Shown here in pieces: positions 7,991 through 53,458 of a stretch of 64,000 nucleotides of DNA. Each line of letters begins with the position of its first letter. The stretch's first letter is position 1. The stretch is from Candidatus Marinacidobacterales bacterium (GTDB lineage: Bacteria > Acidobacteriota > Vicinamibacteria > Marinacidobacterales > SMYC01), in assembly GCA_965237685.1 (NCBI GenBank), contig CBDEGF010000004.1:264541-328540 (forward strand), read 5' to 3'. The translations under genes were made by a program, and so were the position numbers. The notes under the pieces are model-generated. The model ran no database searches. It was not told where the DNA came from and was given only the letters and a program-made list of their open reading frames with translations.

Positions 7991-8579
7991 ACGGACGAAC
8001 AGCCCGAAACACCTCATCCACGACGAAGAGAACGTTGCGCGCGGCCGCAAAGTCGTGAAGCTCGCGAAGTGCCTTTTCGCTGAGAACCTTTCCCGTCGGA
8101 TTGTGAGGCCGGTTGATCAGGAGGAGCTTCGTTCGGTCATCCACCAGCGAGCGGATCTCGTCGGGATCGATTCGAAAGCTCTCGTCGGTCCGAAGCCGAT
8201 ACGACCTCACCTCGAGGCCCAGGGTTTCGGGCAGGGCGGCGAAACCCGGATAGCCGGGCGCGGGAAGCACCACGTTCGCTCCCGGCTCGGCCACGTGGTG
8301 AAAGAGACAGAGAAGCCCCTCGGAAGCTCCGGTCACGATCTGCACATCGTCCGGCTCGACGTCGTTCCAATCTGCGACGACCTGCCGAAGCCCCTCCGTG
8401 CCGGCGGCGGGCGGGTACGTCAGTTTCGACTCCCACAGCGCCTCCTGCTCTTCGGGCGACAACAGACTCAGCAGCTCGCGCACCGACCACGCGGGCCCGC
8501 TGCTCGCGGCGAGATTCAGACGGGTTCGCCGCTCCTGATCTTCCAGCCACGCCTCGAGAGCGAACAATTTCAACTCCAT
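7989..8579 (-). pseudogene. N-terminal half (196 aa) of a class I/II PLP-dependent aminotransferase, truncated before the Schiff-base lysine
   Basis: MELKLFALEAWLEDQERR...YPPAAGTEGLRQVVADW...LLLINRPHNPTGKV...LFVVDEVF then stop. A full-length enzyme is ~380 aa. The SxxK and C-terminal domain are absent from every frame. Confidence 0.6.
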
Positions 8580-8990: not shown

Positions 8991-9031
8991 GGAGGGGCTC
9001 ATGAGGAGGGGTTCGTGAGGAGGGGTTCGTG
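8973..9031 (+). repeat. 14-bp tandem repeat x4 (ATGAGGAGGGGCTC / GTGAGGAGGGGTTC), each unit = Shine-Dalgarno + start codon
   Basis: Units are at 8973, 8987, 9001 and 9015. The real GTG of the MocR gene is at 9029. Units 1-3 (ATG) read MRRGS* and unit 4 (GTG) reads VRRGS*; each stop shares its A with the next start (TGATG / TGAGTG). Confidence 0.9.
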
Positions 9032-10497
9032 ACGGAGCTTCGCATCGACAAGGCCGATCGGGAGCAGCCACTCTATCGTCAGATCGCCGACCGGATCATT
9101 TCGGGTATTCGCGAGAGACATCTGGAGCCGGGCGGTCGACTCCCGACCGTGCGAGAGCTGGCGGAGGAGCTCGAGGTGACGCGGGTCACTGCTCACAACG
9201 CGTACCGGTTCCTGTCTTCCGAAGGCTGGATCGACGCGACGTGGGACGTGGCACGTTCGTCGCCGAGCGACCGCCGCTACCGGCGCCGCCGGCCTCGAGC
9301 TCTCTCTCGCCCGACGCGGTGATGGCGGGCCTCTGCCGTGCAGGTCGAGCGCGCGGCGTGCGTTCTCTCGGAATGGCCGAGCCCGACCACCGTTCGTATC
9401 CAGTCGACGATTTCATGGCCATTCTGCACTCGATGCACGACGAGCTTCGGGAGCTCTTCGACTACGGTCCGACGGATGGAGATGGCGCGCTCCGTGAGGC
9501 GGTCAGTACCGTTCTGCGACCGCGCGGTCTGACGCTTGCGGCCGAAGACGTCCTCATCACGTCCGGCGTTACTCAGGGTCTTTCGATCGTAACGGCCGCG
9601 CTGTCCGAGCCGGGACAAACCGTACTCGTGGAAGAGCCCACGTATCTCGGCTTCATCAGCTTGTTGGAGTCGTATGGTCTCCGGCCACTCGGCGTGCCAC
9701 TCGACGACGAAGGAGCTCGGCTCGATGTCCTGGAGCGATTCCTGTTGCGGGAGCGACCGAGTTTTTTCTATACCATCCCGACGTTTCACAACCCGACGGG
9801 AATCTCCATGACGGAGGACCGACGCGCGGGGCTCCTCGCCCTGGCGTCGGAGTACGGCCTCACGATCGTCGAGGACAATATCTACGGGCGTCTCGCCTAT
9901 GACGGCCCGGCACCTTCGCTGCTCAAAGCGCGGGACGAGCACGACCTCGTCGTCTATTTGGACGGCTTTTCGAAGGCCCTGTTGCCGGGGATCCGCACGG
10001 GCTATGTGATTGCCCCACCCGCGCTCAGGCCGCGACTTTCCTACCTTCTCAGAACGCGAGAGATGGGCGGCTCTACATTTCTGCAGAGGGCGCTGGCCCT
10101 CTTCCTTTCCCAGGGCCTGTACGATGCACACGTGGAGCGCGTACTGCCGACGTATCGAAAAAGGCGCAACGCGCTGGTAGCGGCGCTCTCGGAGCACATG
10201 CCGCCGGAAGTCAGCTGGACCCACCCGTCCGGAGGCTACTGCTGCTGGCTGAGTCTGCCCGAGAATGGCGACTTCACGAACCTGCACCGGATGGCTCTCT
10301 CCCGTGGCGTCCTCGTCACGCCGGGCGACGTCTTCTTCACGAGGTCGCCCCACCGCTCTCACCTTCGCATCTGCTTCGGCGGTGAGGACGAGCGCGTCCT
10401 CGGGGAGGCCGTTCGCGTACTCGCCGACTGCATCGGTGAGCTCCTGGAACGACCCGCCACCACCGCGGGGGCTCCCATGACCCGACCCATCGTCTGA
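9029..10497 (+). pseudogene. MocR/GabR-family regulator (GntR HTH + class-I aminotransferase-like domain) split by a frameshift near 9234-9242
   Basis: The HTH frame reads LYRQIADRIISGIRERHLEPGGRLPTVRELAEELEVTRVTAHNAYRFLSSEGWIDA. Frame +2 then reads VGRGTFVAERP...AEPDHRSYPVDDF...FHNPTGISM...LDGFSKALLPGIRTGYVIAPP. Confidence 0.6.
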
Positions 10498-10608: not shown

Positions 10609-10713
10609 AGGGGGGATGACGACGTTCAAGGAGGCCCTTCCTTACGCCTTCAGTACGGATGACTTCATGCCGGACGCCGTGGAGGAGTTCCCGGAGAAGC
10701 GCGCCCGACAGTA
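10609..10713 (+). pseudogene. Possible relic of the C-terminal tail of an enoyl-CoA hydratase/crotonase (about 34 aa)
   Basis: [32 protein letters not shown] resembles the crotonase C-terminus (AF.S.D..EGV.AF.EKR.P.F). No upstream domain exists. Weak. Confidence 0.2.
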
Positions 10714-10763
10714 GTCGTTTCTCCCGCGTTGGACCGCGGCGTTCGTTTTCGGACTCTCCTCTA

Positions 10764-11166
10764 GTGGTCGTCGAAGTGGCGGTCGCGCTCACGCTCCTCG
10801 TCGGCGCGGGTCTCTTGATGCGGAGCTTCGCCGCCCTGACGTCCGTCGACCCTGGATTCGATACCCGAAACCTCCACCCACGACATTGGAATTCGAATGG
10901 CGATGGGGGCGAGCTCCGGTGACGTGCTCAAGCTGGTCATCGGTCGAGGGATGCTGCTCATGGCCCTGGGAGGGGCGATCGGGCTTGTCGCGTCGTTCGC
11001 GGCAACGCGGTTCATGGAAAGCCTGCTATTTGAGGTCGGCGCCACCGACCCAATGACCTTCGCCGCCGTCCCGCTGGTCCTCGCCGCGGTGGCGCTCGTC
11101 GCCTGCTACGTGCCCGCCCGTCGTGCCGCCGCGGTAGATCCAGTCATCGCGCTCCGCTACGAGTGA
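10764..11166 (+). pseudogene. Two pieces of an ADOP/MacB-type FtsX permease joined by an internal deletion
   Basis: Piece 1 (10764-10876) is [37 protein letters not shown], the segment starting the second periplasmic loop. Piece 2 (10883-11166, other frame) is [21 protein letters not shown]...[45 protein letters not shown], the canonical C-terminus. About 250 aa between them is absent. Confidence 0.5.
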
Positions 11167-11192
11167 AGCCCTCTCACTCTGTTGCGTGTTGA

Positions 11193-12197
11193 TCACGGTG
11201 CCGGCGACGCACCGGCTCGAGACGGTGGTTTCGCTGTGGCTTTGCGCCTTTTCGTTTCGCTCTTCTTGTTCCTGGCCTTCCACTCCCGGTTGAAGCGCTT
11301 CCGCTTGATGAAGGATTTCTGCGTGCCGATGCCGGTCGTCGAGATCCCCGCATAGAGGTTCGCGCGCGCCACGGCATCCCGCTCCGCCATGCCTTCGGCG
11401 AGAAAAACCGCGAAGCTTCCGATGAAAGCATCTCCCGCACCTGTGGAATCCACCGTCTTCACCTCGTAGGCGGGCACGAGCTCCACTCCGTCGGGTCCGG
11501 CGATGAGTGCTCCCCGCTCGCCGAGGGTCAGAATGACGCGCTTCAAACCTTGCTCCAGGAAGAAGGCCGCGCAAGCCTTCGCCTGGTCGACCGTTTGCAC
11601 GGGCATCCCGCTGATCGTCTCGGCCTCGCTCTCGTTTGGAATGAAGTAGTCGACTCCCGCGATGCGCTCGAGATCAACGGGGAGCGCCGGTGCCGGGTTC
11701 ACGATGCAACGGATTCCGTGTTTTCGGGCGAGCTTGACCGTGTGGTAGATGGTCTCCATCGGAATCTCGAACTGGAGCACGATGACGTCCGCCTTTTTCA
11801 GCATCGACGCCGCGTCGTCGACCACCTTTGGGGTCAGCTTGTCATTGGCACCCTTGACCACTACGATGCGGTTCTGACCCTTCTTGTCGACGAAGATCGG
11901 CGCGACGCCACTCGACACCTTCTTCACCTTCCTGACGTGGCGCGCGCGGATACCGAGCGTCTTGAAGTTCTTGATGGTGGCCGGCCCGAAGAGGTCGCCA
12001 CCGACACGGGCAACCATGTGCGCCTCCGCACCACAGTAAGTCGCAGCCACCGCCTGGTTAGCGCCCTTGCCTCCGAAGCCCAGGTCGAAGTGATCTCCAA
12101 ACAGGGTTTCTCCGGGCTTGGGGAAATGGTCGGTGAAAATTGTCAGGTCGATGTTGGCACTTCCGACAACCGCGATACGGGCTTTCTTCTTGGCCAT
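11193..12197 (-). CDS. rbsK: Ribokinase with a ~35-aa Lys/Arg-rich C-terminal extension
   Basis: RIAVVGSANIDL, GGKGANQAVAA, DSTGAGDAFIGSF (anion hole / GAGD motif). Tail is KSFIKRKRFNREWKARNKKSETKRRKATAKPPSRAGASPAP. Confidence 0.85.
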   Translation of the reverse strand: MAKKKARIAVVGSANIDLTIFTDHFPKPGETLFGDHFDLGFGGKGANQAVAATYCGAEAHMVARVGGDLFGPATIKNFKTLGIRARHVRKVKKVSSGVAPIFVDKKGQNRIVVVKGANDKLTPKVVDDAASMLKKADVIVLQFEIPMETIYHTVKLARKHGIRCIVNPAPALPVDLERIAGVDYFIPNESEAETISGMPVQTVDQAKACAAFFLEQGLKRVILTLGERGALIAGPDGVELVPAYEVKTVDSTGAGDAFIGSFAVFLAEGMAERDAVARANLYAGISTTGIGTQKSFIKRKRFNREWKARNKKSETKRRKATAKPPSRAGASPAP

Positions 12198-12211
12198 CGT
12201 GGGTCCTCCAA

Positions 12212-13285
12212 TCAGTGGTGTTTTATTCGTTCGAGGAACATCGACACGAAGCGCTCGCCGTCCACGACCACCGGAACGTCGGCGTTCGGAATGAGTCTCG
12301 GGAAGCCCGAAATCGTGTAGTGGTCGCCGGCGTCTTCGATGGCCTCCGCTATCAGGTCCCGATTGGCAACCGTCTCGCCGTAGCTGTGCTCTCCCTTCGT
12401 CTCCACGTAGATGCGCATCGGGCGGAGGTCGGTAGCCAGCGTCTTGTCGATGGCCATCCCCACCGCGAGCGGATCGTGAAGATCCGAACCTTCGTCGAAA
12501 CCCAGGTTCTCCGAGAATGCGATGTAGAAATCGCCAATCTCGGCCACGTAGTTCGCGACCGCAGAGCTCGAGTTTCGAAGCTCCGGCAGATGCGAGCGGG
12601 TGAGTCTCGCCTGGGCCGTCGCCCCCAGCCCGACCATGGTGATGGGGATGCCGGACTCGAAAACGACTTTCGCCGCCTCGGGATCGTTATAGATGTTGGC
12701 CTCCGCCGCCGGACTGGCGTTTCCACCGACGATGGAGCCACCCATGAGGATGATCTCGGGAATCTTGTCCCGGATCGACGGCTCCTTCAAGAAAGCCAGC
12801 GCGATGTTCGTGAGTGGCCCGACTGGCACGAGCGTGATCTGACCGGGATTCGCGTTGACGGTCTCGAGGATCACGTCCACCGCGTGGCGAGGATCGAGAC
12901 GCTTGGTCGGCGACGGCAAGGGTTTCCCCCCCAGACCACCCGGACCGTGCACCGCCTCGGCAGTGATGAGCTTCCGCTGCAGCGGATACTTGGCCCCTTT
13001 GGCAACGATGAGATCCCGACGGCCCGCCAGCTCGACGAGCTTGAGAGCGTTCTCGGCACCCTGGTCCACGATGACGTTTCCCGATACCACCGTGATTGCC
13101 TCGATCCGAAGCTCGGGAGATCGCATGGCAAGGAGCATGGCCATTGCATCGTCGATACCCGGATCGACGTCGAGGATGATGCGGCGCGGGGCGTCCGTCG
13201 TGGGGTTCGCCTGCGGAGCGACGTTCTGCGCGCGAGCGTCGAGAACAACACTCAGCCCGAAGGAGACGAGCAGCAGAAAGCGCAT
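12212..13285 (-). CDS. Inosine-uridine-preferring nucleoside hydrolase (IU_nuc_hydro family), secreted (signal peptide)
   Basis: MRFLLLVSFGLSVVLDARAQ (signal), then ILDVDPGIDDAMAMLLA (DxDxxxDD motif), GPLTNIALAF, NIYNDPEAAKVVFESG. The stop/start overlap (TGATG) couples it with the upstream permease. Confidence 0.85.
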   Translation of the reverse strand: MRFLLLVSFGLSVVLDARAQNVAPQANPTTDAPRRIILDVDPGIDDAMAMLLAMRSPELRIEAITVVSGNVIVDQGAENALKLVELAGRRDLIVAKGAKYPLQRKLITAEAVHGPGGLGGKPLPSPTKRLDPRHAVDVILETVNANPGQITLVPVGPLTNIALAFLKEPSIRDKIPEIILMGGSIVGGNASPAAEANIYNDPEAAKVVFESGIPITMVGLGATAQARLTRSHLPELRNSSSAVANYVAEIGDFYIAFSENLGFDEGSDLHDPLAVGMAIDKTLATDLRPMRIYVETKGEHSYGETVANRDLIAEAIEDAGDHYTISGFPRLIPNADVPVVVDGERFVSMFLERIKHH

Positions 13286-14271
13286 CAACTCGCGTCCGAA
13301 GCGTAGGCGAGACAGGCGATGGCTCCCACATAGAACATGAACATGAGACCGAGGTAGCGTTTGGCTTTCGCGTTCGCGCCTTCGAACTCTTTCCACACCG
13401 CCACACCCCAGAGAGCGGCGACCATCGGGGCGCTCTGCCCGATCGCGTAGGAGATGGCGAAACCGACTTGGCTTCCGGCAATCAGGTTGAAGCCGGTCCC
13501 GATGCTCCAGATGCACCCGCCAAGGATCCCCAGCACATGCCAGTTCACTCCGCCTTCGAAGTAGCCCGCCATCGAGACCGCCTCTCCGACCAGAGGCTTC
13601 TTCATGAAATAGAGGTTGAACGGTATCGTGGACAGGAGGGCGGCGAGCGTGAAGAAGACGGTGCTGGTGTAGGGCGTCAGCTGGCCATCTCCTGGGGCCA
13701 TCGCAACCGTCGTGAAACGGACCCAGCTTCCCATCAGAAGCCCGCTCACTATGCAGATCCACAAGCCCTTCTTCGTCACTGTGAGTTTGCCGCCGCCGAG
13801 CTCCTTGTAGGCGAGCGCGTCCGAGAGGATGGCCCCCACCGCCAGAGCCACGCCCAGAGCGATGAGGGTCGCATTGCCCTTCGGCTCCTCGACATAGGCC
13901 CAGACGGTTCCGAGCACTAGCGCGGTGCCGATCGAGACGGGAAACGCCACCGCAAGCCCGGCGATGGCGATGGCCGCTACCAGCAGGATGTTCGCGAGAT
14001 TGAAAATGGCGCCGCCGATCAACGCCTGAGCGACGCGCTCGCTCGAGGCCTGCTCCAGATTGGCTAGAAACGCCTGCCCTCCTCCCCCGGAGCTCCCCAG
14101 CGTGAACGCGAGGATGAGCGCCATGACGAAAATGCCGATCGCATAGTCCCAGTAGAAGAGCTCGAAGCGAACGCCCTTCGTGAGCTTGTAGGTGTTGGCC
14201 CACGAGCCCCAGCAGATCGCGCAGACGATCATCATGAGGAGGGCCAATCCCCAGGATTCCGGTACGAACAT
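13285..14271 (-). CDS. 10-TM sugar/ribose uptake permease (GlcU/RbsU-like, DMT superfamily) - tentative
   Basis: 328 aa and very hydrophobic. CWGSWAN resembles the GRP-family LFWGS motif. It is operonic between a nucleoside hydrolase and ribokinase. Family assignment is an inference. Confidence 0.45.
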   Translation of the reverse strand: MFVPESWGLALLMMIVCAICWGSWANTYKLTKGVRFELFYWDYAIGIFVMALILAFTLGSSGGGGQAFLANLEQASSERVAQALIGGAIFNLANILLVAAIAIAGLAVAFPVSIGTALVLGTVWAYVEEPKGNATLIALGVALAVGAILSDALAYKELGGGKLTVTKKGLWICIVSGLLMGSWVRFTTVAMAPGDGQLTPYTSTVFFTLAALLSTIPFNLYFMKKPLVGEAVSMAGYFEGGVNWHVLGILGGCIWSIGTGFNLIAGSQVGFAISYAIGQSAPMVAALWGVAVWKEFEGANAKAKRYLGLMFMFYVGAIACLAYASDAS

Positions 14272-14482
14272 CTCTAGTGCCTCATCGCGCGCTCACTCCT
14301 CGTTCCCGCCTACGCCCTCCGGGCTTCGGCGAGGTCCCGACGAAGCCTTGGCGAAGTCGGACGCGCGCGGCGCCTCGCTCCTCGCGCGGCGCTCGGTGTG
14401 CTATCGGCCCATTCGGGCCGGTCTCGCAGCAGACGCGGCGGCTTGCCGCTCGGCAGGCTGCGGATGCATATTTGGCAGCCTG

Positions 14483-15520
14483 CTAGCGCGTCATCAAATC
14501 AACAAACTCTTCCACGAAACGCGGGTAGTCCAGGTCGAGCAGCACTTCGACCTTGCGTACCCCGGACGGTGGCTGGCGCCGGCTCTGCCAGTGGAGAGTG
14601 CCACCATAGAAGGCGCCGTGGTCGATCTCGACGTCGAAGTATATCTCCTCAGATCGTTTTACGACGTCCGGCTCGAGCAGAGACAATGCCGCAATCTGGT
14701 CGTACATGAGCGGGGAGATCGGCGCCCAGTGCCGTTTCAGAAACGTCTCCGCGAAGTACTTCGCGATCGGCGAATCACCTTCCGAGGCCCGGCTCGCCAC
14801 TTCCTTCGTGAAGGGCGCCTGGCGGCAGATGTTGAGGGGTGTCACCGCCACTTCACGCCAGGGTGCCCGCAACACGATCCTCGCCGCCTCCGGGTCCATC
14901 CAGAAATTGAACTCGGGGAGCGTGTCGATACCGCCACCCATCACGAGGAGCTTTTTGGCCAGCGTGGCGATTTCAGGATCTTTCGCAACGGCGAGCGCGA
15001 CATTGGTCAGGGGGCCGATGGCCGCCACCACCACTTCCCCGGGATTCTCCCGGATGGCGCGAATGAGGAAGTCCACCGCATGCTCGGATTCCGCTTCTCT
15101 CGAAGCGAACTGACCGTCCGGTGGCCGGCGCTCGTCGCGCCCGGGACCATCCGCACGCCAGGCTCCTTTGTAAGCCGCCTCGCTCGTCGAGCCGAAAAGG
15201 AGCTCTCGCGCCTTCATCTCCTCCTGGCTGGTGACCAGCGGAAACTCCGCTCCGGGGTACACCGGCACTTCCGGGCGACCCGCAATCTCGAGCAGGCGTA
15301 GCGCGCTCGCCACTTCCTGTCGCAGCCAGTCGTTGCCGGTGACCACAGTGACGCCGAGGAGGTCCACACGCGGGGATTGCGTGAGGATCAGGAGCGCCAT
15401 CGCGTCGTCGCTGCCGAATCCCAGGTCCGTATCCAGAACGACCTTGAGCCTCTCCCGCTCCACACTTTCTCCGGAAGACACAATTCCGGCAAGAACCAGT
15501 GCCACTATCATGAGTCTCAT
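14483..15520 (-). CDS. Second secreted nucleoside hydrolase (IU_nuc_hydro family)
   Basis: GGAG RBS precedes ATG 15520. MRLMIVALVLAGIVSSG (signal), VVLDTDLGFGSDDAMALLIL, GPLTNVALAVA, NFWMDPEAARIVL. Confidence 0.85.
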   Translation of the reverse strand: MRLMIVALVLAGIVSSGESVERERLKVVLDTDLGFGSDDAMALLILTQSPRVDLLGVTVVTGNDWLRQEVASALRLLEIAGRPEVPVYPGAEFPLVTSQEEMKARELLFGSTSEAAYKGAWRADGPGRDERRPPDGQFASREAESEHAVDFLIRAIRENPGEVVVAAIGPLTNVALAVAKDPEIATLAKKLLVMGGGIDTLPEFNFWMDPEAARIVLRAPWREVAVTPLNICRQAPFTKEVASRASEGDSPIAKYFAETFLKRHWAPISPLMYDQIAALSLLEPDVVKRSEEIYFDVEIDHGAFYGGTLHWQSRRQPPSGVRKVEVLLDLDYPRFVEEFVDLMTR

Positions 15521-15591
15521 AGCCGCTCCACCCAAAGACGGGCAGTCTAACGCCTGGCCGAGCTGGATCAAAGCGACGCCGTCGCCTTCAG

Positions 15592-15620
15592 TTGACAGCC
15601 CGACGGGCCGGATTTACGAT
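15592..15620 (+). promoter_or_regulatory. Putative sigma70 promoter for the TonB-dependent receptor (TTGACA-17-TACGAT)
   Basis: TTGACA at 15592-15597, 17-nt spacer, TACGAT at 15615-15620, about 85 nt upstream of ATG 15704. It lies in the divergent region shared with the hydrolase operon. Confidence 0.4.
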
Positions 15621-15703
15621 ACGTCACAATCGTCATCGACGCGGAGTTCGCAGGTTCCGTCGGGACGGCGAGTGTGGTCATTCCGGAGAAGAGACAGCTG
15701 GGC

Positions 15704-18658
15704 ATGAAATTCTCAAAAGTGTTTCCGGGAACACTCTTAGTGCTCCTCCTAGGCGGCTCGCTCTTCGCGCAGGTCCTCGACCGCGGAGAGCTCAGCGGGA
15801 TAGTGCGCGATGAATCGGGCGCCGTACTGCCCGGCGTGACCGTCACCGTCACGCAGGTGCAGACCGGGTTCACGCGCGTCGCCACCTCGGACGACGGCGG
15901 ACGCTACCGCGCGCCGCTCCTTCCCATCGGCAACTACGTACTGACCGCGGAGCTTCCGGGCTTTGCGACGGTGACGCGTGACGGCGTTGTGGTGGCGGTC
16001 GGCTCGTCGGTAGTGATCGATCTTCTCCTCCCGCTCGCCAGCGTGACGGAGGCGGTCACCGTCACCGCGGCCTCCCCGGTGGTCGAGACAAGGCGCTCGG
16101 TCGTCAGTACGACGCTCAACCAGGAGGCGGTCTCCACGCTGCCGGTCGACGGACGCGACTTCCGGAACTTCGCAACGCTATCGCCCAATGCGAGCCAGAC
16201 GCCCGGGCTTCGCTCGCCGATCCGTTTCGGCGGCCAGCAGGGGGACTACTCCATGCTCACCGTCGACGGGGCCGACATGACGAACTCGTTCTTCGCCGAG
16301 TACGCGGGCTCGCTCGAGACGCAGAACTTCACCATCTCCCAGGAAGCCATTCAGGAGTTCCAGATCCTCACCAACGGTTTCGACGCCGAGTTCGGTCGCT
16401 CCACCGGCGGTGTCATCAACGTGGTGACGAAGTCCGGGACCAACGACGTGCGCGCATCGGCGTTCTTCTTCCACAAGGACGAGAACCTGACTGCAAACGA
16501 CCCGTTCGGGAACCCGCCGACTCAGTTCTCCCGGCAACAAGTCGGCGCTAGCGTCGGCGGCCCTATCGCCGAGGGCAAGGCCTTTTTTTTCATCGCCGCC
16601 GATATTCAAGATGCGGACGGTCCGATCACCACGCAGTTCAGCCGCGACGTGGATGGCGTGTCTGTTCCGGAGCTTGGAATCGACAACCTGGCCGACTTCG
16701 AAGGGCAAACCCCTCAGAAGCAGGATCTCAAGACCTTCTTCGGCCGGGTCGACTTCGACGTCAACAGCTCCAACCGCCTGACCGTCCGGGCCAACTTCAG
16801 CGACAACAACTCCGACTCCTTCACCGGCGGTCGCGGCCAGAATGTCGTGAACGCGGCCCCCAATAACTTCGAGAACTTCAGTAACTCGGCGCTCTCGGTC
16901 GTGACGAGCTTGACGACGGTCATCGGAACCAACAAGTTCAACGAGTTCAAATACCACTACATCCGCGAAGATCGTCCTCGCATGGCGCTGAGCGACGACC
17001 CCGAGGCCCAGATCTCCGATACCGGAGCTTTCGGCCGGCGCTTCTTTCTTCCCATCACGGGCGACACCATACGTCATCAATTCACGGACAGCTTCAGCTA
17101 CCTCTTTGGAAGCCACGACCTGAAGTTCGGTGTCGACTGGAACTCGGTCGAGCTGACCGACAACGCCTTCATCGGATTCTCCGCTGGCACGTACTTCTTC
17201 GATACGCTCGAGGACTTCGAGGCCCGACAGGCCTCCGGCTTCCTCCAGCGCGTCTTCATCAACGGCTTCACGCCCGAGACCCACGTCACCAACGACTACT
17301 GGACGCACGAGCTCGGTTTGTTCATTCAGGACAAATGGCAGGTGCGGAGCAATCTCACCGTCAGCTACGGACTGCGCTACGAAGCCCAGTACAACGGCGA
17401 TCCCAAGTTCCCGACTCTCGACGTCAACGGCAACCCGGCGGGTGCGGTGAGACGTCCGGGATCGACCGAGCTGCGGACGGTGCCGCAGACGATCGCGAAC
17501 GACACCAACAACTGGGGTCCGAGGCTCGGCATCTCCTGGGATCCGACCAAAGAGGGGCGCACCGTCGTTCGTGGCGGGCTCGGCTTGTACTACGGTCGAA
17601 CGGCTCAGATTTTCATGCCCACCGGCGGTTCCAACTTCCAATCCGGTGTCATCGAGACCTTCCCGCCACTGCTCACTTATCCCGCGATCTTCCAGAGCAT
17701 CATCCCCGAGGGGAAGGAGCCGCCGGTCCCGTTGCCGCCACCTAGCATCAGCTTCGTGGACGAGAATTTCAACAACCCGCGGGTTCTGAACGTCAACATC
17801 GGCTTCGACCACGAGCTGGCCGAGGATCTCGCCGTCGGTTTCGACTTCGTCTACTCCCGCACCGAGAACGCGCGCGTGGGCGGCTTTCTCCCGTTCAACA
17901 TGAACACGAAGCCGCCCACCGGGACCGACGCGTTCGGCCGGCCGATCGGCATCGACGCCTCGTTCATCGATAGCGACGGCGACGGGCAGATCTTCCGGGT
18001 GCAAGAGCCGGCGCTCGGGGCGTCGAACATCCTTTCGAGTGTCGGCAGGGCCCGCTACAGGGCATTCACCGTCTCGGCGCGGAAGTCCTTCGTGGCCGGC
18101 AGCCAGTTCCAGGCCTTCTACACCTGGTCTCGCGACGAGTCGAACGCCGACACCGAGCGCGACGTCGACGTCTTTCTCGGCGGCTCCGCCCCGTTCCTGC
18201 CGTTCATCGAGGACGATTTCGGGATCGACGAGCGCGACATCTCCCATCGGTTCGTCTTTCAGGGGACGACCGAGCTTCCCGCTAATCTGCTGCTCAGCGG
18301 TATCGTCAACCTCCGCTCGGGCCGCGCCGCGCCCGGCTACACGTTCACCGACGTCAATGGCGACAACCAGACCGGGACACCCGGCAATCAGTTCGACCGC
18401 CCGGTGATGAACGGCCAAGTGCTGCCACGGTTCCCGTTTCGCCAGCCTGCTTTCTACACTGTCGATGTGCGCCTCATGTGGACGGGGACCTTCGGCAAGA
18501 ACAACGTCGATCTGCTTTTCGAAGTCTTCAACCTCTTCAACTCCAGCAACTTCGAGACCACGCTCTTCAACGTGAGTACCGTCAACTTTCTGGAGAACAG
18601 CACGTTCGTGGGCACGCAGCGGACCGCTCAGATCGGCATCAAGTGGCGGTTCCAGTAG
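15704..18658 (+). CDS. TonB-dependent outer-membrane receptor with N-terminal carboxypeptidase-regulatory-like domain (Acidobacteria-type)
   Basis: MKFSKVFPGTLLVLLLGGSLFAQV (signal); GIVRDESGAVLPGVTVTVT...GNYVLTAELPGFAT (CarboxypepD_reg); plug and barrel motifs; terminal ...IGIKWRFQ. Confidence 0.85.
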   Translation: MKFSKVFPGTLLVLLLGGSLFAQVLDRGELSGIVRDESGAVLPGVTVTVTQVQTGFTRVATSDDGGRYRAPLLPIGNYVLTAELPGFATVTRDGVVVAVGSSVVIDLLLPLASVTEAVTVTAASPVVETRRSVVSTTLNQEAVSTLPVDGRDFRNFATLSPNASQTPGLRSPIRFGGQQGDYSMLTVDGADMTNSFFAEYAGSLETQNFTISQEAIQEFQILTNGFDAEFGRSTGGVINVVTKSGTNDVRASAFFFHKDENLTANDPFGNPPTQFSRQQVGASVGGPIAEGKAFFFIAADIQDADGPITTQFSRDVDGVSVPELGIDNLADFEGQTPQKQDLKTFFGRVDFDVNSSNRLTVRANFSDNNSDSFTGGRGQNVVNAAPNNFENFSNSALSVVTSLTTVIGTNKFNEFKYHYIREDRPRMALSDDPEAQISDTGAFGRRFFLPITGDTIRHQFTDSFSYLFGSHDLKFGVDWNSVELTDNAFIGFSAGTYFFDTLEDFEARQASGFLQRVFINGFTPETHVTNDYWTHELGLFIQDKWQVRSNLTVSYGLRYEAQYNGDPKFPTLDVNGNPAGAVRRPGSTELRTVPQTIANDTNNWGPRLGISWDPTKEGRTVVRGGLGLYYGRTAQIFMPTGGSNFQSGVIETFPPLLTYPAIFQSIIPEGKEPPVPLPPPSISFVDENFNNPRVLNVNIGFDHELAEDLAVGFDFVYSRTENARVGGFLPFNMNTKPPTGTDAFGRPIGIDASFIDSDGDGQIFRVQEPALGASNILSSVGRARYRAFTVSARKSFVAGSQFQAFYTWSRDESNADTERDVDVFLGGSAPFLPFIEDDFGIDERDISHRFVFQGTTELPANLLLSGIVNLRSGRAAPGYTFTDVNGDNQTGTPGNQFDRPVMNGQVLPRFPFRQPAFYTVDVRLMWTGTFGKNNVDLLFEVFNLFNSSNFETTLFNVSTVNFLENSTFVGTQRTAQIGIKWRFQ

Positions 18659-18679
18659 CCTGAGGCACGTTAGGATAGA

Positions 18680-18710
18680 GGCCGGGCCCAGAGGGGCCCC
18701 GGCCTTTTTC
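18680..18710 (+). terminator. Rho-independent terminator
   Basis: GGCCGGGCCCAGAGGGGCCCCGGCC stem-loop followed by TTTTT, 20 nt after the receptor stop. Confidence 0.7.
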
Positions 18711-18721
18711 GTTCTCCGACA

Positions 18722-20146
18722 ATGACGTGGATTGCCATATTCGCAACGCTTGCGCTCCCGGCGGCGCGCCAGGACGTCGAGTTCGAGACGCTGGTCACCG
18801 AGGCTCTGGCCGCCGAGCGTGCAGGCCAGATCGTCGAGGCCATCGCCGCGCTCGAAAAAGCTCGAGAGCTACGCCCGGAGGTGGCTCAGATACACTCGAC
18901 TCTGGCCTGGCTCCACTATCGTCAGGGCCGGCTCACCGAAGCGCTCTCCGAGGTTCAGGAAGCGATACGCCTCCGGCCCGACATGGCCCCGTACCATCAC
19001 TTGAAGGGGCTCGTAGCGCGCGACCTACGGCGCCCAACAGAAGCCGTCGAAGCCTTCACCGAGGCGATTGCGAGAGCGCCGTCTCTGGGAGAAGCCTATC
19101 TGGCTCTCGCCGATCTCCACCAGGCGGAGCAGGAGCTCGGGAAGGCCACCGAGGTGCTGCGGCGTTATCTCGACGTCTACCCCGACGACACTCGAGCTCT
19201 GTACTTCCTCGGGAGTGTCTTGAGCTACCAGAACCAGTTCGACGAAGCGGCGGTTCTTCTCGAGAAGGTGGTGAAAGCAGCCCCCGATCACGCTCGAGCC
19301 TGGTTTCGAAAAGCGCACCTCGAGGCACAACGCCCGGAAACGCACCCGCAGGCAATCCAGAGCTATGAACGGGCCATTCGGCTCGACGGCGCGTACGCCT
19401 ACGCGCATTACGAGTACGGAACGCTTCTCGAAAAGCTTGGGCGGTCCGATGAGGCGGTGAACGCTCTCGAGCGTGCCGTCGCACTCGCCCCCGATCACGC
19501 CGAGGCCCATTACGCGCTCGGGAACGCGCTGAGCCGCCTCGGACGCACGGACGAGGCGGAGGTGGAGCTGGGGCGCTTTCAGGAACTGAGAAGCAGGACC
19601 GACGAACAAAGAGCTCAGGCCGGCCGGGCCCTCGCCGCCTTCGGCCACGGCCGGCAGGCTCTGGAGCAGGGCCGTCTCGAGGAGGCGACCGAAGCTTTTC
19701 TCGAGATGACCGAGCTCGATCCGAGGAACCACATCGGCTATGCGTTTCTCGCCAAAAGCTACGCCTCGCTCGGCCAACTCGGAGTCGCCATCGCCTACGC
19801 ACGGCGCGCGGCGGAGCTGTCACCGGGAACGAGCGAGTATCCCTATCTGCTGTCGCTGTTTCTCAAGGAGCAAGGTAATGTGGGAGGCGCCCTCGAGGCG
19901 GTTCGAAAAGCCATCTCCTTGGATCCACGAAACGCGACGTTGCACAACCTGTATGGCGTCATCCTGGACGATCTGGGACGGGTGAGCGCGGCGGTGGCTA
20001 TCTACGAGAAGACGGTCGCGCTCGACCCTTCGAATCCAAGCTTTGCGCTGAATCTGGCCGCTGCCTACCGGAAGCTCGGCAACGACGCGAAAGCCGACGC
20101 GATGATGGATCGCTACCGACGACTCGTCTCGGGGAAAACCCGTTGA
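18722..20146 (+). CDS. TPR-repeat protein (474 aa)
   Basis: Repeated 34-aa units with W-LG-Y / A-F-A-P patterns (e.g. AEAHYALGNALSRLGRTDEAEVEL). Confidence 0.8.
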   Translation: MTWIAIFATLALPAARQDVEFETLVTEALAAERAGQIVEAIAALEKARELRPEVAQIHSTLAWLHYRQGRLTEALSEVQEAIRLRPDMAPYHHLKGLVARDLRRPTEAVEAFTEAIARAPSLGEAYLALADLHQAEQELGKATEVLRRYLDVYPDDTRALYFLGSVLSYQNQFDEAAVLLEKVVKAAPDHARAWFRKAHLEAQRPETHPQAIQSYERAIRLDGAYAYAHYEYGTLLEKLGRSDEAVNALERAVALAPDHAEAHYALGNALSRLGRTDEAEVELGRFQELRSRTDEQRAQAGRALAAFGHGRQALEQGRLEEATEAFLEMTELDPRNHIGYAFLAKSYASLGQLGVAIAYARRAAELSPGTSEYPYLLSLFLKEQGNVGGALEAVRKAISLDPRNATLHNLYGVILDDLGRVSAAVAIYEKTVALDPSNPSFALNLAAAYRKLGNDAKADAMMDRYRRLVSGKTR

Positions 20147-21793
20147 CCGTAGTGCGGCTCGCCTCAGCCATCGTCGTGTTTCTGACGGCGATCGGCCCCG
20201 CCGGGGGGTGGTCCGCACAGGCGGTGTTTCGACGTGGACCGGACCTCCAGTTCCAGCACCGATCGGGTGATCCCGACAAGCGCTACATCCTCGGCGCCAT
20301 GGGTTCCGGCGTCGCTCTGTTCGACTACGATCTCGACGACGACCTGGACATCTTCCTCGTCAACGCGACGGAGCCGGGCCGGCTCTTCCGAAACGATATG
20401 GACGGGCAGGACGGGCAAGGCCTTCGTTTCACGGACGTGACGTCCTCCGCCGGTCTCACTCCGAGCGGGTTCGGTCAGGGCGTGGCGGTGGCTGACGTCG
20501 ACAACGACGGGGATCCAGATCTCTACGTCACGAACTTCGGAGCGAACGCTCTCTTCCGAAACCGCGGCGACGGCACGTTCGAGCAGATGAGCTCGGGAGC
20601 AAGAGGACGAACGATGGGGTGCGAGCGCGGCTTTCTCCGACACCGACCACGACGGCTTCGTCGATCTCTACGTCACGAACTACCTCGACTTCGACCAAGA
20701 GCTCCTGGACCGTGTCGTGCCAGAGGAGTTCTGTCGCCGGAAGGGTCTTGCGGTCAACTGTGGCCCGCGAGGCTTTCCGTTCGTCTCCAGCACGTTCTAC
20801 CGCAACCGTGGTGACGGGACCTTCGAGGATGTCACCCGGGCGTCGGGACTCGAGAACCGCCGGACCTACCAGCTGGGTGTGGTCTTCTCCGATCTCGATC
20901 TCGATGGCGACACCGATCTCTACATCGCAACCGACTCCACACCGAACCTTCTCTTCGAGAACCAGGGGGACGGGACGTTTCGGGATCGCTCGCTGATCTC
21001 GGGCGCGGCACTCTCTCACCTCGGCACCGATCAGGCGGGCATGGGCGTCGACGCGGGCGACGCCAGCGGCGACGGCCTCTTCGATCTCCTCGTCACGAAC
21101 TTCGCCGACGACTACAACACGCTCTACATCAATCAGGACGAGATGCGCTTTCAGGACGCGACGGACCTCGCCCACCTCGCCGTGGCCAGCCTTCCCTATC
21201 TGGGCTGGAGCGCGTTTCTCGAGGATATCGACGGCGACGGCGATCTGGACATCCTCGTCGTAAACGGCCACGTCTACCCACAGGTCGATGGTTCCGGCGT
21301 CGGCGAGAGCTTCCGCCAGCCGATGCAGCTCTTCTGGAATCGCGGAGACGGCACGTTCGAGCCCGCCCCGGCAACCGAGCTCGGCGCGCTCGCGGAACCG
21401 GTTTCGGCGCGGGGAGCCGGTCTCGGTGATCTCGACGGCGACCTGGACCTGGACGCGGTGGTGAACGTCATGGACGGCGCGCCGCTGGTGCTTCAGAACG
21501 AGAAACGCGTCCGGGGCGTCGCTCTACGCCTGGTGGGACGGCGCTCCAACCGCGACGGCCTCGGCGCTGTTCTGACCGCCCGGCACGGCGGGCGGCTCCT
21601 CCGGCGAGAGCTGCGCGGCGGACGCGGCTATCTCTCCCATAGCGCCAGCCGTGCCTTCTTTGGTCTTGCCGATGACAACGCCATCGACGAGCTCACGATT
21701 GCATGGCCGGGGAGTTCAACGGAGACTATCGAAGGCCTTCGACCCGGACGCTACACTGTCGCGGAAGGGCTCGGCGTGATCCACAAGGAGTAG
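20143..21793 (+). pseudogene. ASPIC/UnbV (CRTAC1-family, FG-GAP/VCBS repeat) protein with a frameshift near 20585-20600
   Basis: TTG start overlaps the TPR stop. Frame A ends ...NRGDGTFEQMSSGA. Frame B continues EQEDERWGASAAFSDTDHDGFVDLYVTNYLDF...FYRNRGDGTFEDVT...FENQGDGTF. The UnbV_ASPIC C-terminal domain is intact. Confidence 0.65.
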
Positions 21794-21881
21794 CCAGGTG
21801 CTCGACGGCCGCCTGTGGGCGCACTACCACACGACACATTGGCCGCATCATCTGACCGTCACGTCGGCGTACTCGACAAGA

Positions 21882-22817
21882 ATGAAACGCATCGTTATCG
21901 ACTGCGACCCCGGCCAGGACGACGCGGTCATGCTGCTCCTCGCGTTGGCCTCACCCGAAGAGCTGGACATCCTCGGCATCACCACCGTTGCCGGCAACGT
22001 GCCGCTAAACAAGACCGAGCGTAACGCCCGCATCATTTGTGAGCTCGCGGGGAGATCTGAGATCAGGGTATTCGCAGGCTGCGCCCGTCCCATGATGCGG
22101 CCGCTGGTGACCGCCGAGTACGTTCACGGCAAGGAAGGGATCGACGGCGCCGAGATCTACGAGCCCGAGATGCCGCTTCAGGACCGCCACGCCGTCGAGT
22201 TCATCGTCGAGACGCTGATGGCTTCCGACGACGAATCGGTGATCCTCGTGCCGACCGGCCCACTGACCAACATCGGCATGGCTCTGGTCCGCGAGCCGCG
22301 GATCGCATCAAGAATCTGCGAGATCGTGCTCATGGGCGGCGCGATGCGCGAAGGCGGCAACACCACCCCCTCGGCCGAGTTCAACATCTACGTCGACCCT
22401 CATGCCGCGGCGGTCGTCTTCGATTGCGGGCGTCCCATCGTCGCGATGAGCCTCGACGTCACCCACCGGGTCCTCACGACGCCCCAGCGCATCAAGGCCA
22501 TCGGGGACATCGGGAGCGCCGTCGCCTCGACGGTGAAGAGCATGCTCGAGTTCTACAACCGCTACGATCTGGAGAAGTACGGTATGGAAGGCGGGCCCCT
22601 CCACGATCCATGCACGATCGCCTACCTTCTGAAGCCCGAGCTCTTCCAGGGCAAGCACGTCAACGTCGAGATCGAAACGCAATCGGAGCTGACGATGGGG
22701 GAGACGGCGGTCGATTTCTGGGGCGTGACCGATCGACCGAAAAACGCCGTCTGGATCTACGACGCGGACGCGGACGGCTTCTTCGCGCTCCTGACCGAGC
22801 GCCTCGCGCGTTTATAG
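21882..22817 (+). CDS. Cytoplasmic nucleoside hydrolase (RihA/IunH-like, no signal peptide)
   Basis: MKRIVIDCDPGQDDAVMLLLAL, PTGPLTNIGMAL, NIYVDPHAAAVVF, HDPCTIAYLL. Confidence 0.85.
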   Translation: MKRIVIDCDPGQDDAVMLLLALASPEELDILGITTVAGNVPLNKTERNARIICELAGRSEIRVFAGCARPMMRPLVTAEYVHGKEGIDGAEIYEPEMPLQDRHAVEFIVETLMASDDESVILVPTGPLTNIGMALVREPRIASRICEIVLMGGAMREGGNTTPSAEFNIYVDPHAAAVVFDCGRPIVAMSLDVTHRVLTTPQRIKAIGDIGSAVASTVKSMLEFYNRYDLEKYGMEGGPLHDPCTIAYLLKPELFQGKHVNVEIETQSELTMGETAVDFWGVTDRPKNAVWIYDADADGFFALLTERLARL

Positions 22818-22822
22818 GAACG

Positions 22823-23218
22823 TCAGCTCTGGTTCACAACGGTGATCTGGTCGTTCAACGTCCACATGTTGTACAAATAGCCGATGCCCAGAAACGCTGC
22901 CGTCAGGAGATAGAGGATCCCGGTGAGCCACTTCCCAATGTACATCCGGTGGACACCGAAGAAACCCAGAAAAGTAAGAAGAATCCAGGCCACCGTGTAG
23001 TCGATCTTTCCAGCCTTGAACCGGAGATCCGCGTCCCGATCCATCGCCGGAATCAGGAACAGATCGATGAGCCACCCCACCCCGAGCAATCCCGCCGTAA
23101 AGAACCAGATGGTCCCCGAGATCGGCTTGCCGTAGTAGAAACGGTGCGCACCCGTGAAACCGAAGATCCAAAGGATGTAACCGATAGATTTGAGATGGGT
23201 GTCGTTCGTTTCGCTCAT
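22823..23218 (-). CDS. TM2-domain (NINE-like) membrane protein
   Basis: MSETNDTHLKSIGYILWIFGFTGAHRFYYGKP...GFFGVHRMYIGK: duplicated TM2 motif. Confidence 0.7.
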   Translation of the reverse strand: MSETNDTHLKSIGYILWIFGFTGAHRFYYGKPISGTIWFFTAGLLGVGWLIDLFLIPAMDRDADLRFKAGKIDYTVAWILLTFLGFFGVHRMYIGKWLTGILYLLTAAFLGIGYLYNMWTLNDQITVVNQS

Positions 23219-23309
23219 GGAATCCCCGCATCGGACGTTGCCTTCATCACAGGCAATACGTAAGCTCTTGCAGCCTGGTTCAACGGCCTGGCGATAGGAG
23301 GGACATATC

Positions 23310-24632
23310 ATGCGCCTCACGTACTTGCCAATCGGCGTGCTCTTCGTTCTGAGCTCCGTCGGCCGGTCGGACGGCCAGGTCCGCAGCGCCCGCGAACGCC
23401 ACGATCGCGAGTGGGAGACCAAGGCCCGGAAAATGGAGAGCCACCTGCTCCCGACGATGCGGAAGCACGGCATCGATATGTGGATCCTGATGAGCCGGGA
23501 GAACCACCCCGATCCGATCCTCGATCTCTTCGGGAAAAACGGCGTCTCCGGATGGTACGGCCACCGAAACGCCTACATCTTCTACGACGACGGACAGGTC
23601 CTCGAAACCACGGTTATCGGAACGCACCTGAGCGACCATCTCGCACGCTTCTACAAGAACATCATCTCGTACGGAGAAGAGGGCCTGGCTGGCCACTTGA
23701 AGGAGTTCGTCGAAGAGCGGGATCCGGAGCGCATCGCCATCAACCGATCGCGCACGATCTCGATGGCGGATGGATTGACCGCTTCGCTCCTGCAGTATCT
23801 GGAGGAGGCCATCGGTCCAAAGTACACGGAGCGAATGGAATCGTCCGAGCCCATGGCGATCGACTACATCAGCTATCGGACGGACGCGGAGCTCGCGATC
23901 GAGCGCGAGGCGAGCTGGGCCACGTTTCACATCCTTCGGCGCGCCTTCTCGAACGAGGTGATTACGCCCGGCAAGACGACGCTCATGGACGTCTACTGGT
24001 GGATCGTAAACCAGTGGAAAGCCCAGGATCTCGAGTTCAATTTCGCGCCCGGCATCGACATCCAGCGAAAAGGGGTGGAAGGCCGCATCGATGACGCCGC
24101 TGACCCGATCATCCAGCCCGGCGACGTCCTGCACGTGGACTTCGGCGTCCGTTTGATGGGCCTGGTGACCGATCAGCAGAAGATGGCCTACGTGCTGCGG
24201 CACGACGAGACGGAGCCTCCCGAAGGTATCCGCAAAGCTTTCGAGGACTCGGTTCGCCTGGGGGTGATCCTCACCGAAGAGCTGAAGCCGGGAGTGCTCG
24301 GCCATGTCGTCAAAGAGCGAGCGGAGGAACGAGGAATCGGCGAAGGCATCATCAGCTCGATCTATCCGCACTCGCAGGGCAACTGGGTCCACGGAGCCGG
24401 CTCCTGGGTCAGTTTCAACTGGCCGGAGCGCTACGGCCGCCACCCGCGAGAGCCAGTGCGCCAGCGCGAAATCTGGTCCATCGAGTACTCGGCGTCCCGC
24501 GACATTCCCGAATGGGGAGGCCAGCGCGTCTCCATGCCCCGCGAGGAGGACGCTTGGGTCGATGAGGACGGCGAGGTTCACTACTTTGCCGGCCCGCAGA
24601 AGGAGCTGTGGCTCATTCGAACCGAGCCGTGA
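23310..24632 (+). CDS. Secreted M24-family metallopeptidase (Xaa-Pro aminopeptidase-like)
   Basis: Signal MRLTYLPIGVLFVLSSVG. Pita-bread metal ligands are in GDVLHVDFGVRLMGLVTDQQKM...HSQGNWVHGAG...REIWSIEYS. Confidence 0.75.
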   Translation: MRLTYLPIGVLFVLSSVGRSDGQVRSARERHDREWETKARKMESHLLPTMRKHGIDMWILMSRENHPDPILDLFGKNGVSGWYGHRNAYIFYDDGQVLETTVIGTHLSDHLARFYKNIISYGEEGLAGHLKEFVEERDPERIAINRSRTISMADGLTASLLQYLEEAIGPKYTERMESSEPMAIDYISYRTDAELAIEREASWATFHILRRAFSNEVITPGKTTLMDVYWWIVNQWKAQDLEFNFAPGIDIQRKGVEGRIDDAADPIIQPGDVLHVDFGVRLMGLVTDQQKMAYVLRHDETEPPEGIRKAFEDSVRLGVILTEELKPGVLGHVVKERAEERGIGEGIISSIYPHSQGNWVHGAGSWVSFNWPERYGRHPREPVRQREIWSIEYSASRDIPEWGGQRVSMPREEDAWVDEDGEVHYFAGPQKELWLIRTEP

Positions 24633-53383: not shown

Positions 53384-53458
53384 GCCCAGAAGCTGCTGCT
53401 TCGCATCGTAGCGATATTGACGTCGAATGGTCCTCAATCAAAGTCCATCGGGCTCAGG
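53384..53458. repeat. Second copy of the 70-bp dispersed repeat; abuts the truncated IS copy 2
   Basis: AGCTGCTGCTTCGCATCGTAGCGATATTGACGTCGAATGGTCCTCAATCAAAGTCCATCGGGCTCAGGCT. Confidence 0.8.

Follow-up and report, generated by a model that had tools for sequence, protein, structure and literature searches.

The rus polysaccharide utilization locus (PUL; BT2802-2809) of Bacteroides thetaiotaomicron encodes a periplasmic nucleoside hydrolase, RusNH, together with RusT and two ribokinases (Glowacki et al., bioRxiv 10.1101/574913; Cell Host Microbe 2020). In logic and in parts list it is the closest system to a gene cluster that we describe here from a Candidatus Marinacidobacterales bacterium (Acidobacteriota; Vicinamibacteria), in a 64,000-nucleotide stretch of DNA (the window; assembly GCA_965237685.1, contig CBDEGF010000004.1, positions 264,541 to 328,540). 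One strand carries genes for a nucleoside hydrolase (NH1), an inner-membrane permease, a second hydrolase (NH2), and a ribokinase (RbsK); divergent from them lie genes for a TonB-dependent receptor, a secreted tetratricopeptide-repeat (TPR) protein, a secreted FG-GAP/ASPIC protein, and a third hydrolase (NH3). As in the rus PUL, a TonB-dependent outer-membrane transporter, a periplasmic nucleoside hydrolase (here predicted), a sugar permease, and a ribokinase are brought together in one locus. We favor, with moderate confidence, the reading that this is a TonB-dependent nucleoside/ribose utilization locus of an Acidobacteriota type, a functional counterpart of the rus PUL and of the carbohydrate utilization loci containing TonB-dependent receptors (CUT loci) of Xanthomonas.

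The resemblance to rus extends to its variability. As in the rus-like PULs of Bacteroidetes, enzyme content differs among relatives, ADP-ribosyl glycohydrolases included, and the minimal unit is again a permease plus a kinase. The differences are equally clear. There is no SusD homologue here; the receptor is of the Oar type and has TPR and FG-GAP/ASPIC partners; two to six predicted periplasmic hydrolases are encoded per locus, among them a clade that lacks the catalytic histidines; the ribokinase is single, and a RusR-like regulator is absent; and the phyla are Acidobacteriota and, in part, Gemmatimonadota. The gene downstream of the receptor matches only TPR families among the 25 Pfam matches listed and has no lipobox. 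A first-pass annotation of this DNA, made from the sequence alone, had suggested a PUL-like system. The company of ribokinase, predicted periplasmic hydrolase, and permease supports that term, but the locus is not a PUL, because it has no SusC/SusD pair.

Other systems share parts of this logic. In the CUT loci of Xanthomonas and Caulobacter, such as the sux sucrose locus (PMC1790865), a TonB receptor, an inner-membrane transporter, and a degrading enzyme are likewise clustered, and Oar-like N-terminal extensions are known in the Xanthomonas receptor set (PMC1790865). Three of the four components that define a CUT locus are present here. The fourth, a regulator, was not found, and the locus differs further in its substrate class (nucleosides/ribose), in the proposed cleavage in the periplasm before import, and in its TPR/ASPIC accessory genes. 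In X. albilineans, a TonB-receptor operon with a putative nucleoside hydrolase has been mentioned in passing. In plants, the extracellular nucleoside hydrolase NSH3 acts with nucleoside and base importers (PMC4688390), so that there, too, nucleosides are cleaved before they cross the cytoplasmic membrane, and uptake of the products follows. This apoplastic system is a eukaryotic one, however, and involves neither an outer membrane nor TonB; the likeness concerns the logic and not the locus. What is new here is the phylum, the receptor class with its TPR/ASPIC partners, the multiplicity of exported hydrolases, and the histidine-less NH1 clade.

Nucleoside hydrolases and their predicted export

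The window was analyzed with a six-frame list of open reading frames (ORFs), Pfam and NCBIfam family scans, and inspection of gene junctions. The ORF list and family scans recovered every gene named in the first-pass annotation, at the coordinates and with the families it had given. The three hydrolases share the fold and the Ca/ribose-binding residues of the cytoplasmic RihA, RihB, and RihC enzymes of Escherichia coli and of the Crithidia inosine-uridine nucleoside hydrolase (IU-NH; PDB 1q8f, 3g5i, 1mas). NH2 and NH3 match PF01156 at 297.6 and 333.3 bits against a cutoff of 34.2, carry the motifs DVDPGIDD and DCDPGQDD, respectively, each with LHDP, and align over their full length with RihA, YeiK, and IU-NH in PDB alignments, with the catalytic histidine retained. 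By these signatures NH2 is a predicted canonical group-I IU-NH/RihA-like enzyme, and NH3 is also predicted to be canonical; against the RihA NCBIfam model NH3 scores 332 bits, under the cutoff of 433.

NH1 departs from this pattern in its active site. It, too, is a clear family member (219.5 bits with PF01156), and it keeps the Ca and ribose ligands D30, D32, D38, D39, T172, E203, N205, and D274. In the family alignments the four aspartates, the threonine of GPLTN, the E-x-N pair, and the C-terminal Ca-ligand aspartate are invariant columns. Unlike the cytoplasmic enzymes, however, NH1 has the Asp motif DTDLGFGSDD, in which a two-residue insertion leaves five residues between the Asp pairs instead of the canonical three (DXDXXXDD). 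The two base-side histidines, H82 and H239 of YeiK, are replaced by F109 and Y273, and the second position is a tryptophan (MWDE) in more distant relatives. NH1 also carries an extra aromatic-rich insertion of ∼25 residues with invariant Y117 and W121. An AlphaFold2 (AF2) model of NH1 (pLDDT 81) has the nucleoside hydrolase fold, with Foldseek TM-scores of 0.7-0.85 to nucleoside hydrolase structures; the best structural matches are plant and archaeal nucleoside hydrolases, at 0.7-0.8. We infer from these residues that NH1 may be catalytically active as a ribohydrolase but differ in its leaving-group strategy or in the base that it prefers. As judged from sequence, its clade is a new group of predicted exported nucleoside hydrolases whose active site is free of the usual histidines.

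Export leaders, which the cytoplasmic Rih and IU-NH enzymes lack, were judged by a basic start, a hydrophobic core, and small residues at −3 and −1, together with conservation in the family. Both NH1 and NH2 have a short basic N terminus, a core of 10-13 hydrophobic residues, and small −3/−1 residues (SSG|E and ARA|Q), as expected of Sec-type leaders. The NH1 leader reads MRLMIVALVLAGIVSSG|ES; that of NH2 reads MRFLLLVSFGLSVVLDARA|QN and is followed by a linker of ∼15 residues. In the leaders of NH1, NH2, the receptor, and the ASPIC protein, mean Kyte-Doolittle hydropathy over 10 core residues is 2.5-3.2, and inspection of these N termini revealed no lipobox and no twin-arginine motif. By the same heuristics, RbsK and NH3 have no leader-like N terminus. 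The probable start of NH3 is the ATG at 21882 (MKRIVIDCDPGQDD), and its catalytic motif begins at once, with no room for a leader, in keeping with the cytoplasmic location first proposed for it.

The leaders hold across the family. In an alignment of 24 relatives of NH1, every Acidobacteriota and Gemmatimonadota member has an N-terminal segment before the first catalytic Asp, conserved in character and not in sequence; the Opitutae versions have no N-terminal extension at all. Among the NH1-family ORFs in the loci fetched for comparison (see below), 68 of 84 were scored as bearing a leader, and several of the others failed only because the start-codon rule missed the true start. NH2 orthologues in loci L007, L009, L011, and L012 are leader-bearing as well, and one paralogue has a Tat-type leader (MSRRQFVTASA). 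Periplasmic export of NH1 and NH2 is therefore the best reading of these N termini, and the signal peptides assigned to both operon hydrolases at first pass appear sound. The accompanying remark that secreted nucleoside hydrolases are unusual is only partly right: a periplasmic hydrolase in a TonB-receptor locus is already described in the Bacteroides rus PUL, although beyond RusNH we found no report of a periplasmic bacterial nucleoside hydrolase in the open-access papers searched.

Conservation of the receptor-hydrolase cluster

The receptor has a signal peptide (LFA|QV), a CarboxypepD_reg N-terminal extension, a TonB-box-like EAVTVTA (residues 116-122), and a large barrel that ends in the aromatic strand AQIGIKWRF(Q). 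Its plug domain matches PF07715 weakly (19.4 bits, E = 0.0015), under the 23.9 cutoff. A sequence comparison with the PDB gave no match, and the SusC/RagA model is absent among the receptor's four NCBIfam matches. By its predicted parts it is an Oar-like TonB-dependent receptor. A role for it as an Oar-like exporter of the hydrolases was considered, and no evidence in support was found.

With a profile of the NH1 clade we fetched 76 loci, one genome per species, and annotated them with the window's own proteins; receptor proximity was counted over loci with at least 5 kb on both sides of NH1. The cluster is conserved in many soil and marine Acidobacteriota. An Oar-type receptor lies within 5 kb of an NH1-family gene in 39 of 47 Acidobacteriota loci, in two gene orders, which bears out the first-pass suggestion that receptor and secreted hydrolase belong together. 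In a close clade (Candidatus Marinacidobacterales, Vicinamibacteria; 59-77% identity) the receptor is within 5 kb in four of eight loci, divergent as in the window, and the window's full arrangement recurs in this clade: ASPIC, TPR, and receptor genes occupy one strand, and NH1, permease, NH2, often an extra hydrolase, and RbsK the other. The permease is present in all eight of these loci and the ribokinase in seven. In a distant clade (Terriglobia-type, ∼40% identity) the receptor is within 5 kb in 35 of 39 loci, mostly upstream on the same strand. There, ASPIC comes first, (NH2) receptor and NH1 follow on a single strand, and TPR, RbsK, and permease come last, with NH1 directly downstream of the receptor, often within 170-300 bp. 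The recurrence of the same partners in two different gene orders argues for a functional link between receptor and hydrolase.

The promoter region tells a similar story. The first-pass annotation had assigned the receptor gene a clean sigma-70 promoter. The site, TTGACA-17-TACGAT, is indeed present, but taken alone it is not above chance (two sites versus 1.5 expected); what speaks for it is conservation, since TTGACA-17/18-TAnnAT is kept in all six loci compared (L007, L009, L011, L012, L018, and the window) while the flanks have diverged. On the NH1 side, a direct pattern search for the −10 box in orthologous intergenic regions located TTGAT(A/C)-16/18-TAGACT at the equivalent place in three of five orthologous loci (L009, L012, and L018). 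In the window this −10 box ends 23 nt before the ATG, with a GGTGGAG ribosome-binding site following it. In L009 (9945-9982), L012 (9887-9922), and L018 (9968-10003), 6-8 nt lie between the end of TAGACT and the ATG, so that the mRNA would be leaderless. The receptor gene and the NH1 operon, as first proposed, diverge from a shared region, with back-to-back promoters that are both conserved.

The permease had been described as a 10-TM (10 transmembrane segment) sugar permease. A hydropathy scan finds eight strong and two weaker hydrophobic segments, compatible with that number; the sugar assignment is less secure, since the PF07168 Ureide_permease model scores higher (71.7 bits, mainly over the C-terminal third) than PF06800 Sugar_transport (27.8 bits against a cutoff of 26.3, spanning the whole protein, residues 15-317). 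With the RhaT/GlcU model TIGR00776 the score is 23 bits against a cutoff of 319.6. Homologues are named "GRP family sugar transporter" or "glucose uptake protein" in their sources, and among relatives the permease adjoins RbsK in nearly every architecture. This constant adjacency suggests that it carries ribose; the higher ureide-permease score leaves room for import of bases.

The ribokinase was noted at first pass for an unusual Lys/Arg-rich tail of 35 residues. Its first ∼17 residues (IKRKRFNREWKARNKK) form a basic C-terminal helix that is kept in orthologues ending at 307-312 aa, so that only the last ∼22, a low-complexity extension specific to this genome, are out of the ordinary. One orthologue has an unrelated C-terminal extension. 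A frameshift artefact was ruled out as the origin of the tail: orthologues share the basic helix, and neither of the other frames encodes a kinase C terminus.

Further genes in related loci would also fit nucleoside catabolism. In L081 (2802-21098), six IU_nuc_hydro paralogues, of which one has a Tat-type leader, are clustered with DeoC. In L084 (107-12283), an NCS1 cytosine/purine permease, a dihydropyrimidinase-like amidohydrolase, a luciferase-like monooxygenase, and a CN_hydrolase adjoin a PfkB-receptor-NH-NH array; these pyrimidine-type neighbors link the cluster to pyrimidine breakdown. In L001 and L002, an ADP-ribosyl glycohydrolase and GH172 lie beside NH1.

The TPR and ASPIC genes, which the first-pass annotation enclosed in its coordinates without naming them, accompany the receptor in both architectures. 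The TPR gene is beside the receptor in L002, L003, L009, L011, L012, L018, and the distant clade, and in L081 and L083 TPR is fused with ASPIC in one polypeptide. The fusions in L081 and L083 (11203-14904) are giant, combining FG-GAP, UnbV_ASPIC, a thioredoxin-like AhpC-TSA/Redoxin domain, and TPR repeats. Against the PDB, the ASPIC profile matches only human CRTAC1 (9etn), and the TPR protein matches generic TPR proteins only. We found no report linking ASPIC/UnbV to TonB receptors in the open-access papers searched.

This trio also occurs on its own. We fetched 80 soil-metagenome loci (L086-L165) with the ASPIC profile and counted over the 44 of at least 8 kb. A TPR gene lies within 1.5 kb of ASPIC in 25 of them, and an Oar-type receptor within 1.5 kb of ASPIC or TPR in 22; nucleoside hydrolase, window-type permease, and ribokinase occur in none. 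The neighbors are instead LacI regulators (six ORFs), GH127 (four ORFs), and GH32 (two ORFs), along with major facilitator superfamily (MFS) and Sugar_tr transporters, melibiase, arabinose isomerase, and glucuronate isomerase. ASPIC or TPR genes commonly occur as tandem paralogues in these loci. Since the trio stands beside varied sugar genes and without nucleoside hydrolases, it appears to be a generic core for carbohydrate uptake, with nucleoside enzymes added in the present locus. We tentatively go one step further, to a proposal that is possible without being likely: receptor, TPR, and ASPIC proteins may together make up an uptake core that works without SusD and is reused by Acidobacteriota for many carbohydrates, with the TPR and ASPIC proteins capturing or docking the substrate and the window representing its nucleoside edition.

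Proposed pathway and competing explanations

The pathway that we favor for the locus would run in four steps. First, the Oar-type receptor, with the secreted TPR and FG-GAP/ASPIC proteins, would bring nucleosides or small ribosylated compounds into the periplasm. Second, NH1 and NH2, as Sec-exported Ca-dependent N-ribohydrolases with different active-site types, would split the base from ribose; NH2 would act as the canonical histidine type, and the aromatic-substituted NH1 possibly with another base preference. Third, the permease, of the drug/metabolite transporter (DMT) superfamily and glucose/ribose porter (GRP) type, would import ribose, and fourth, the ribokinase would convert it to ribose-5-phosphate. 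The bases would be taken up by other transporters encoded elsewhere, and NH3 would handle nucleosides that reach the cytoplasm intact. The same path of capture, periplasmic cleavage, ribose uptake, and phosphorylation had been suggested at first pass. It agrees with the gene families, leaders, catalytic residues, synteny, and promoters read from the DNA, from which we infer localization, substrate, direction of transport, the TPR/ASPIC role, and co-regulation.

Uptake through the receptor is the weakest step of this path, and several observations weigh against the proposal as a whole. Nucleosides are small enough for porins, and in B. thetaiotaomicron, mutants in rusC/D and in rusNH remained able to grow on nucleosides (bioRxiv 10.1101/574913). 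The loss of both group-I histidines and the altered Asp spacing of NH1 mean that it may act on something other than a standard nucleoside. The permease scores better with the plant ureide-permease model than with the GRP sugar model, and the leaders were judged by heuristics, not by SignalP. Within the locus, the ASPIC gene is frameshifted in this assembly, 211 nt separate NH1 from the permease gene with a hairpin at the NH1 stop, and a search of the wider window found no regulator, nuclease, or phosphatase gene that belongs to it. Finally, Gemmatimonadota relatives carry NH1, permease, and RbsK without a receptor. To the first objection there is an answer: sucrose-sized cargo enters Xanthomonas via the TonB receptor SuxA (Blanvillain et al. 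2007, PMC1790865), so nucleosides need not be too small for a TonB system.

A different cargo is an explanation that we regard as rather unlikely. The receptor could take up a larger or rarer ribose compound, such as NAD/ADP-ribose derivatives, oligonucleotides, ribosylated secondary metabolites, or cytokinin ribosides, with the hydrolases acting on breakdown products. The usual substrates of TonB receptors are ones whose size or scarcity puts them beyond the reach of porins; Rus systems are thought to target varied ribose conjugates, and in B. thetaiotaomicron rusC/D is dispensable for nucleosides. The ADP-ribosyl glycohydrolase and GH172 genes beside NH1 in L001 and L002, the altered base pocket of NH1, and the presence of as many as six hydrolase paralogues per locus would suit such a cargo. 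The window, however, has no phosphatase, nuclease, or ADP-ribosyl hydrolase; IU-NH enzymes require free nucleoside; sucrose-sized molecules are known TonB cargo; and pyrimidine-catabolic genes adjoin one related locus.

It is improbable that the receptor, TPR, and ASPIC genes are an independent, generic uptake or export module that lies beside a separate hydrolase/ribose operon and shares no substrate with it. Each half does occur without the other: the trio without hydrolase, permease, or RbsK in soil contigs, and the hydrolase-permease-RbsK unit in Gemmatimonadota and some Acidobacteriota. A terminator-like hairpin follows the receptor gene, and the Oar receptor of Myxococcus is required for protein export. 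Yet receptor and NH1 stay paired even where the gene order has changed and the sequences have diverged by about 60%, the distant-clade NH1 sits directly downstream of the receptor on the same strand, and the divergent promoters stand back to back and are both conserved.

Least probable of all is that the permease imports the released bases (ureide, uracil, or xanthine type) instead of ribose, or that NH1 is a noncatalytic binding protein: the higher ureide-permease score and the missing histidines point that way, but the ureide match is confined mainly to the C-terminal third whereas the sugar model spans the protein, the permease adjoins ribokinase almost everywhere, like the permease-kinase pair of the minimal rus unit, base transporters of other families occur separately in L084, and the Ca and ribose ligands of NH1 are all invariant columns.

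Locus layout, surroundings, and significance

The features of the cluster are collected in Table 1. A TGATG stop/start overlap had been placed between the first two operon genes; it lies instead at 13283-13287, between the permease stop and the NH2 start, and NH1 and the permease gene are separated by the spacer at 14272-14482. That spacer is GC-rich with several short inverted repeats, and measures 77-84 nt in L002 and L003. From the NH2 stop to the ribokinase gene there are 14 nt, with a GGAGGA ribosome-binding site in between. On the other strand, the ASPIC start overlaps the TPR stop (ATGA), and NH3 starts 88 nt past the ASPIC gene. An Rfam scan of 10900-23600 at E ≤ 1 gave a single chance snoRNA match, with no riboswitch or leader in the NH1-permease gap or in the receptor 5′ leader.

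Table 1. Features of the receptor-hydrolase cluster, with positions in the window
Feature	Position	Strand	Basis or remark
Ribokinase (RbsK), last gene of operon	11193..12197	-	TIGR02152 337.3 bits vs cutoff 299.65; PfkB E 3e-63
Nucleoside hydrolase 2 (NH2)	12212..13285	-	IU_nuc_hydro PF01156 E 1.7e-88
Inner-membrane DMT-superfamily permease, GRP/ureide-permease-like	13285..14271	-	PF07168 6e-20; PF06800 27.8 bits; PF07857
Perfect 9-bp hairpin GCAGGCTGC-13 nt-GCAGCCTGC on NH1 stop codon	14453..14483	-	No T-run
Nucleoside hydrolase 1 (NH1), divergent predicted secreted clade	14483..15520	-	PF01156 E 1.1e-64
Promoter-like site of NH1 operon, TTGATC-16-TAGACT	15544..15571	-	Equivalent sites in L009, L012, L018
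Sigma-70-type promoter of receptor gene, TTGACA-17-TACGAT	15592..15620	+	Consensus scan, 10/12 matches
Oar-type TonB-dependent receptor	15704..18658	+	CarboxypepD_reg + OMP_b-brl_4
Terminator-like hairpin GGGCCCAGAGGGGCCC then T-run, between receptor and TPR gene	18684..18709	+	
Secreted TPR-repeat protein, 474 aa, hydrophobic N terminus	18722..20146	+	TPR families (Pfam)
Secreted FG-GAP beta-propeller/UnbV_ASPIC protein, CRTAC1 family	20143..21793	+	Pfam; frame broken once
Nucleoside hydrolase 3 (NH3), RihA/UriH-like, leaderless, predicted cytoplasmic	21882..22817 (ORF 21798-22817)	+	PF01156 E 2.2e-99

The ASPIC frame switches once, at 20583-20603, where the L002 orthologue aligns in frame +3 before and +1 after (tblastn) and there is no long homopolymer. 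A second break affects a MocR-type regulator (GntR helix-turn-helix plus aminotransferase) at 9029-10497, split into two frames near 9240, where the expected ...DATVGRGTFVAE needs one more base. Both breaks may be long-read indel errors or real decay. This MocR-type gene is the regulator nearest to the locus; it is separated from it by FtsX permease pieces in two frames (10659-11166) and does not lie beside the locus in relatives. Farther out, 7289-8579 holds the C-terminal half of a Ser/Thr kinase with a PD40 repeat and an overlapping aminotransferase piece on the opposite strand. The gene fragments at 7.3-11.2 kb suggest local decay or indel errors.

On the other side, a membrane protein with two TM2 domains (22823-23473, minus strand) converges on NH3, and a secreted M24-type peptidase homologue follows (23310-24632, plus strand); nothing that we found links either to the locus. 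Two IS66 copies (31785-33768 and 53456-55493), 99-100% identical and inverted (arms of 1375, 293, and 249 nt), bracket ∼20 kb that encode an amidohydrolase, a lactate permease, a GGDEF-EAL protein, and an M1 peptidase, a stretch that looks like a composite transposon or an invertible segment. The wider-window search for nuclease, phosphatase, and regulator genes returned only unrelated ones (RecQ, MetH, MscS, GGDEF-EAL, lactate permease, and IS66). Among relatives elsewhere, Opitutae have no more of the cluster than a leaderless homologue of NH1.

Few soil bacteria are as abundant as Acidobacteriota, and little is known of how they feed. Both carbon and nitrogen are supplied by nucleosides that come from decaying cells and extracellular nucleic acids. 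The cluster described here, found in Vicinamibacteria-like, Terriglobia-like, and some Gemmatimonadota genomes, offers a testable route for their use: energized uptake across the outer membrane, periplasmic base removal, and ribose import. It also exposes a large, uncharacterized clade of predicted exported nucleoside hydrolases without the usual histidines. Finally, the receptor-TPR-ASPIC trio recurs beside sugar regulators and glycosidases and may be the Acidobacteriota answer to SusC/SusD. If the trio does prove to be such a reusable uptake core, this would provide the first testable function for bacterial CRTAC1/ASPIC proteins and would define a PUL-like paradigm for a dominant soil phylum.

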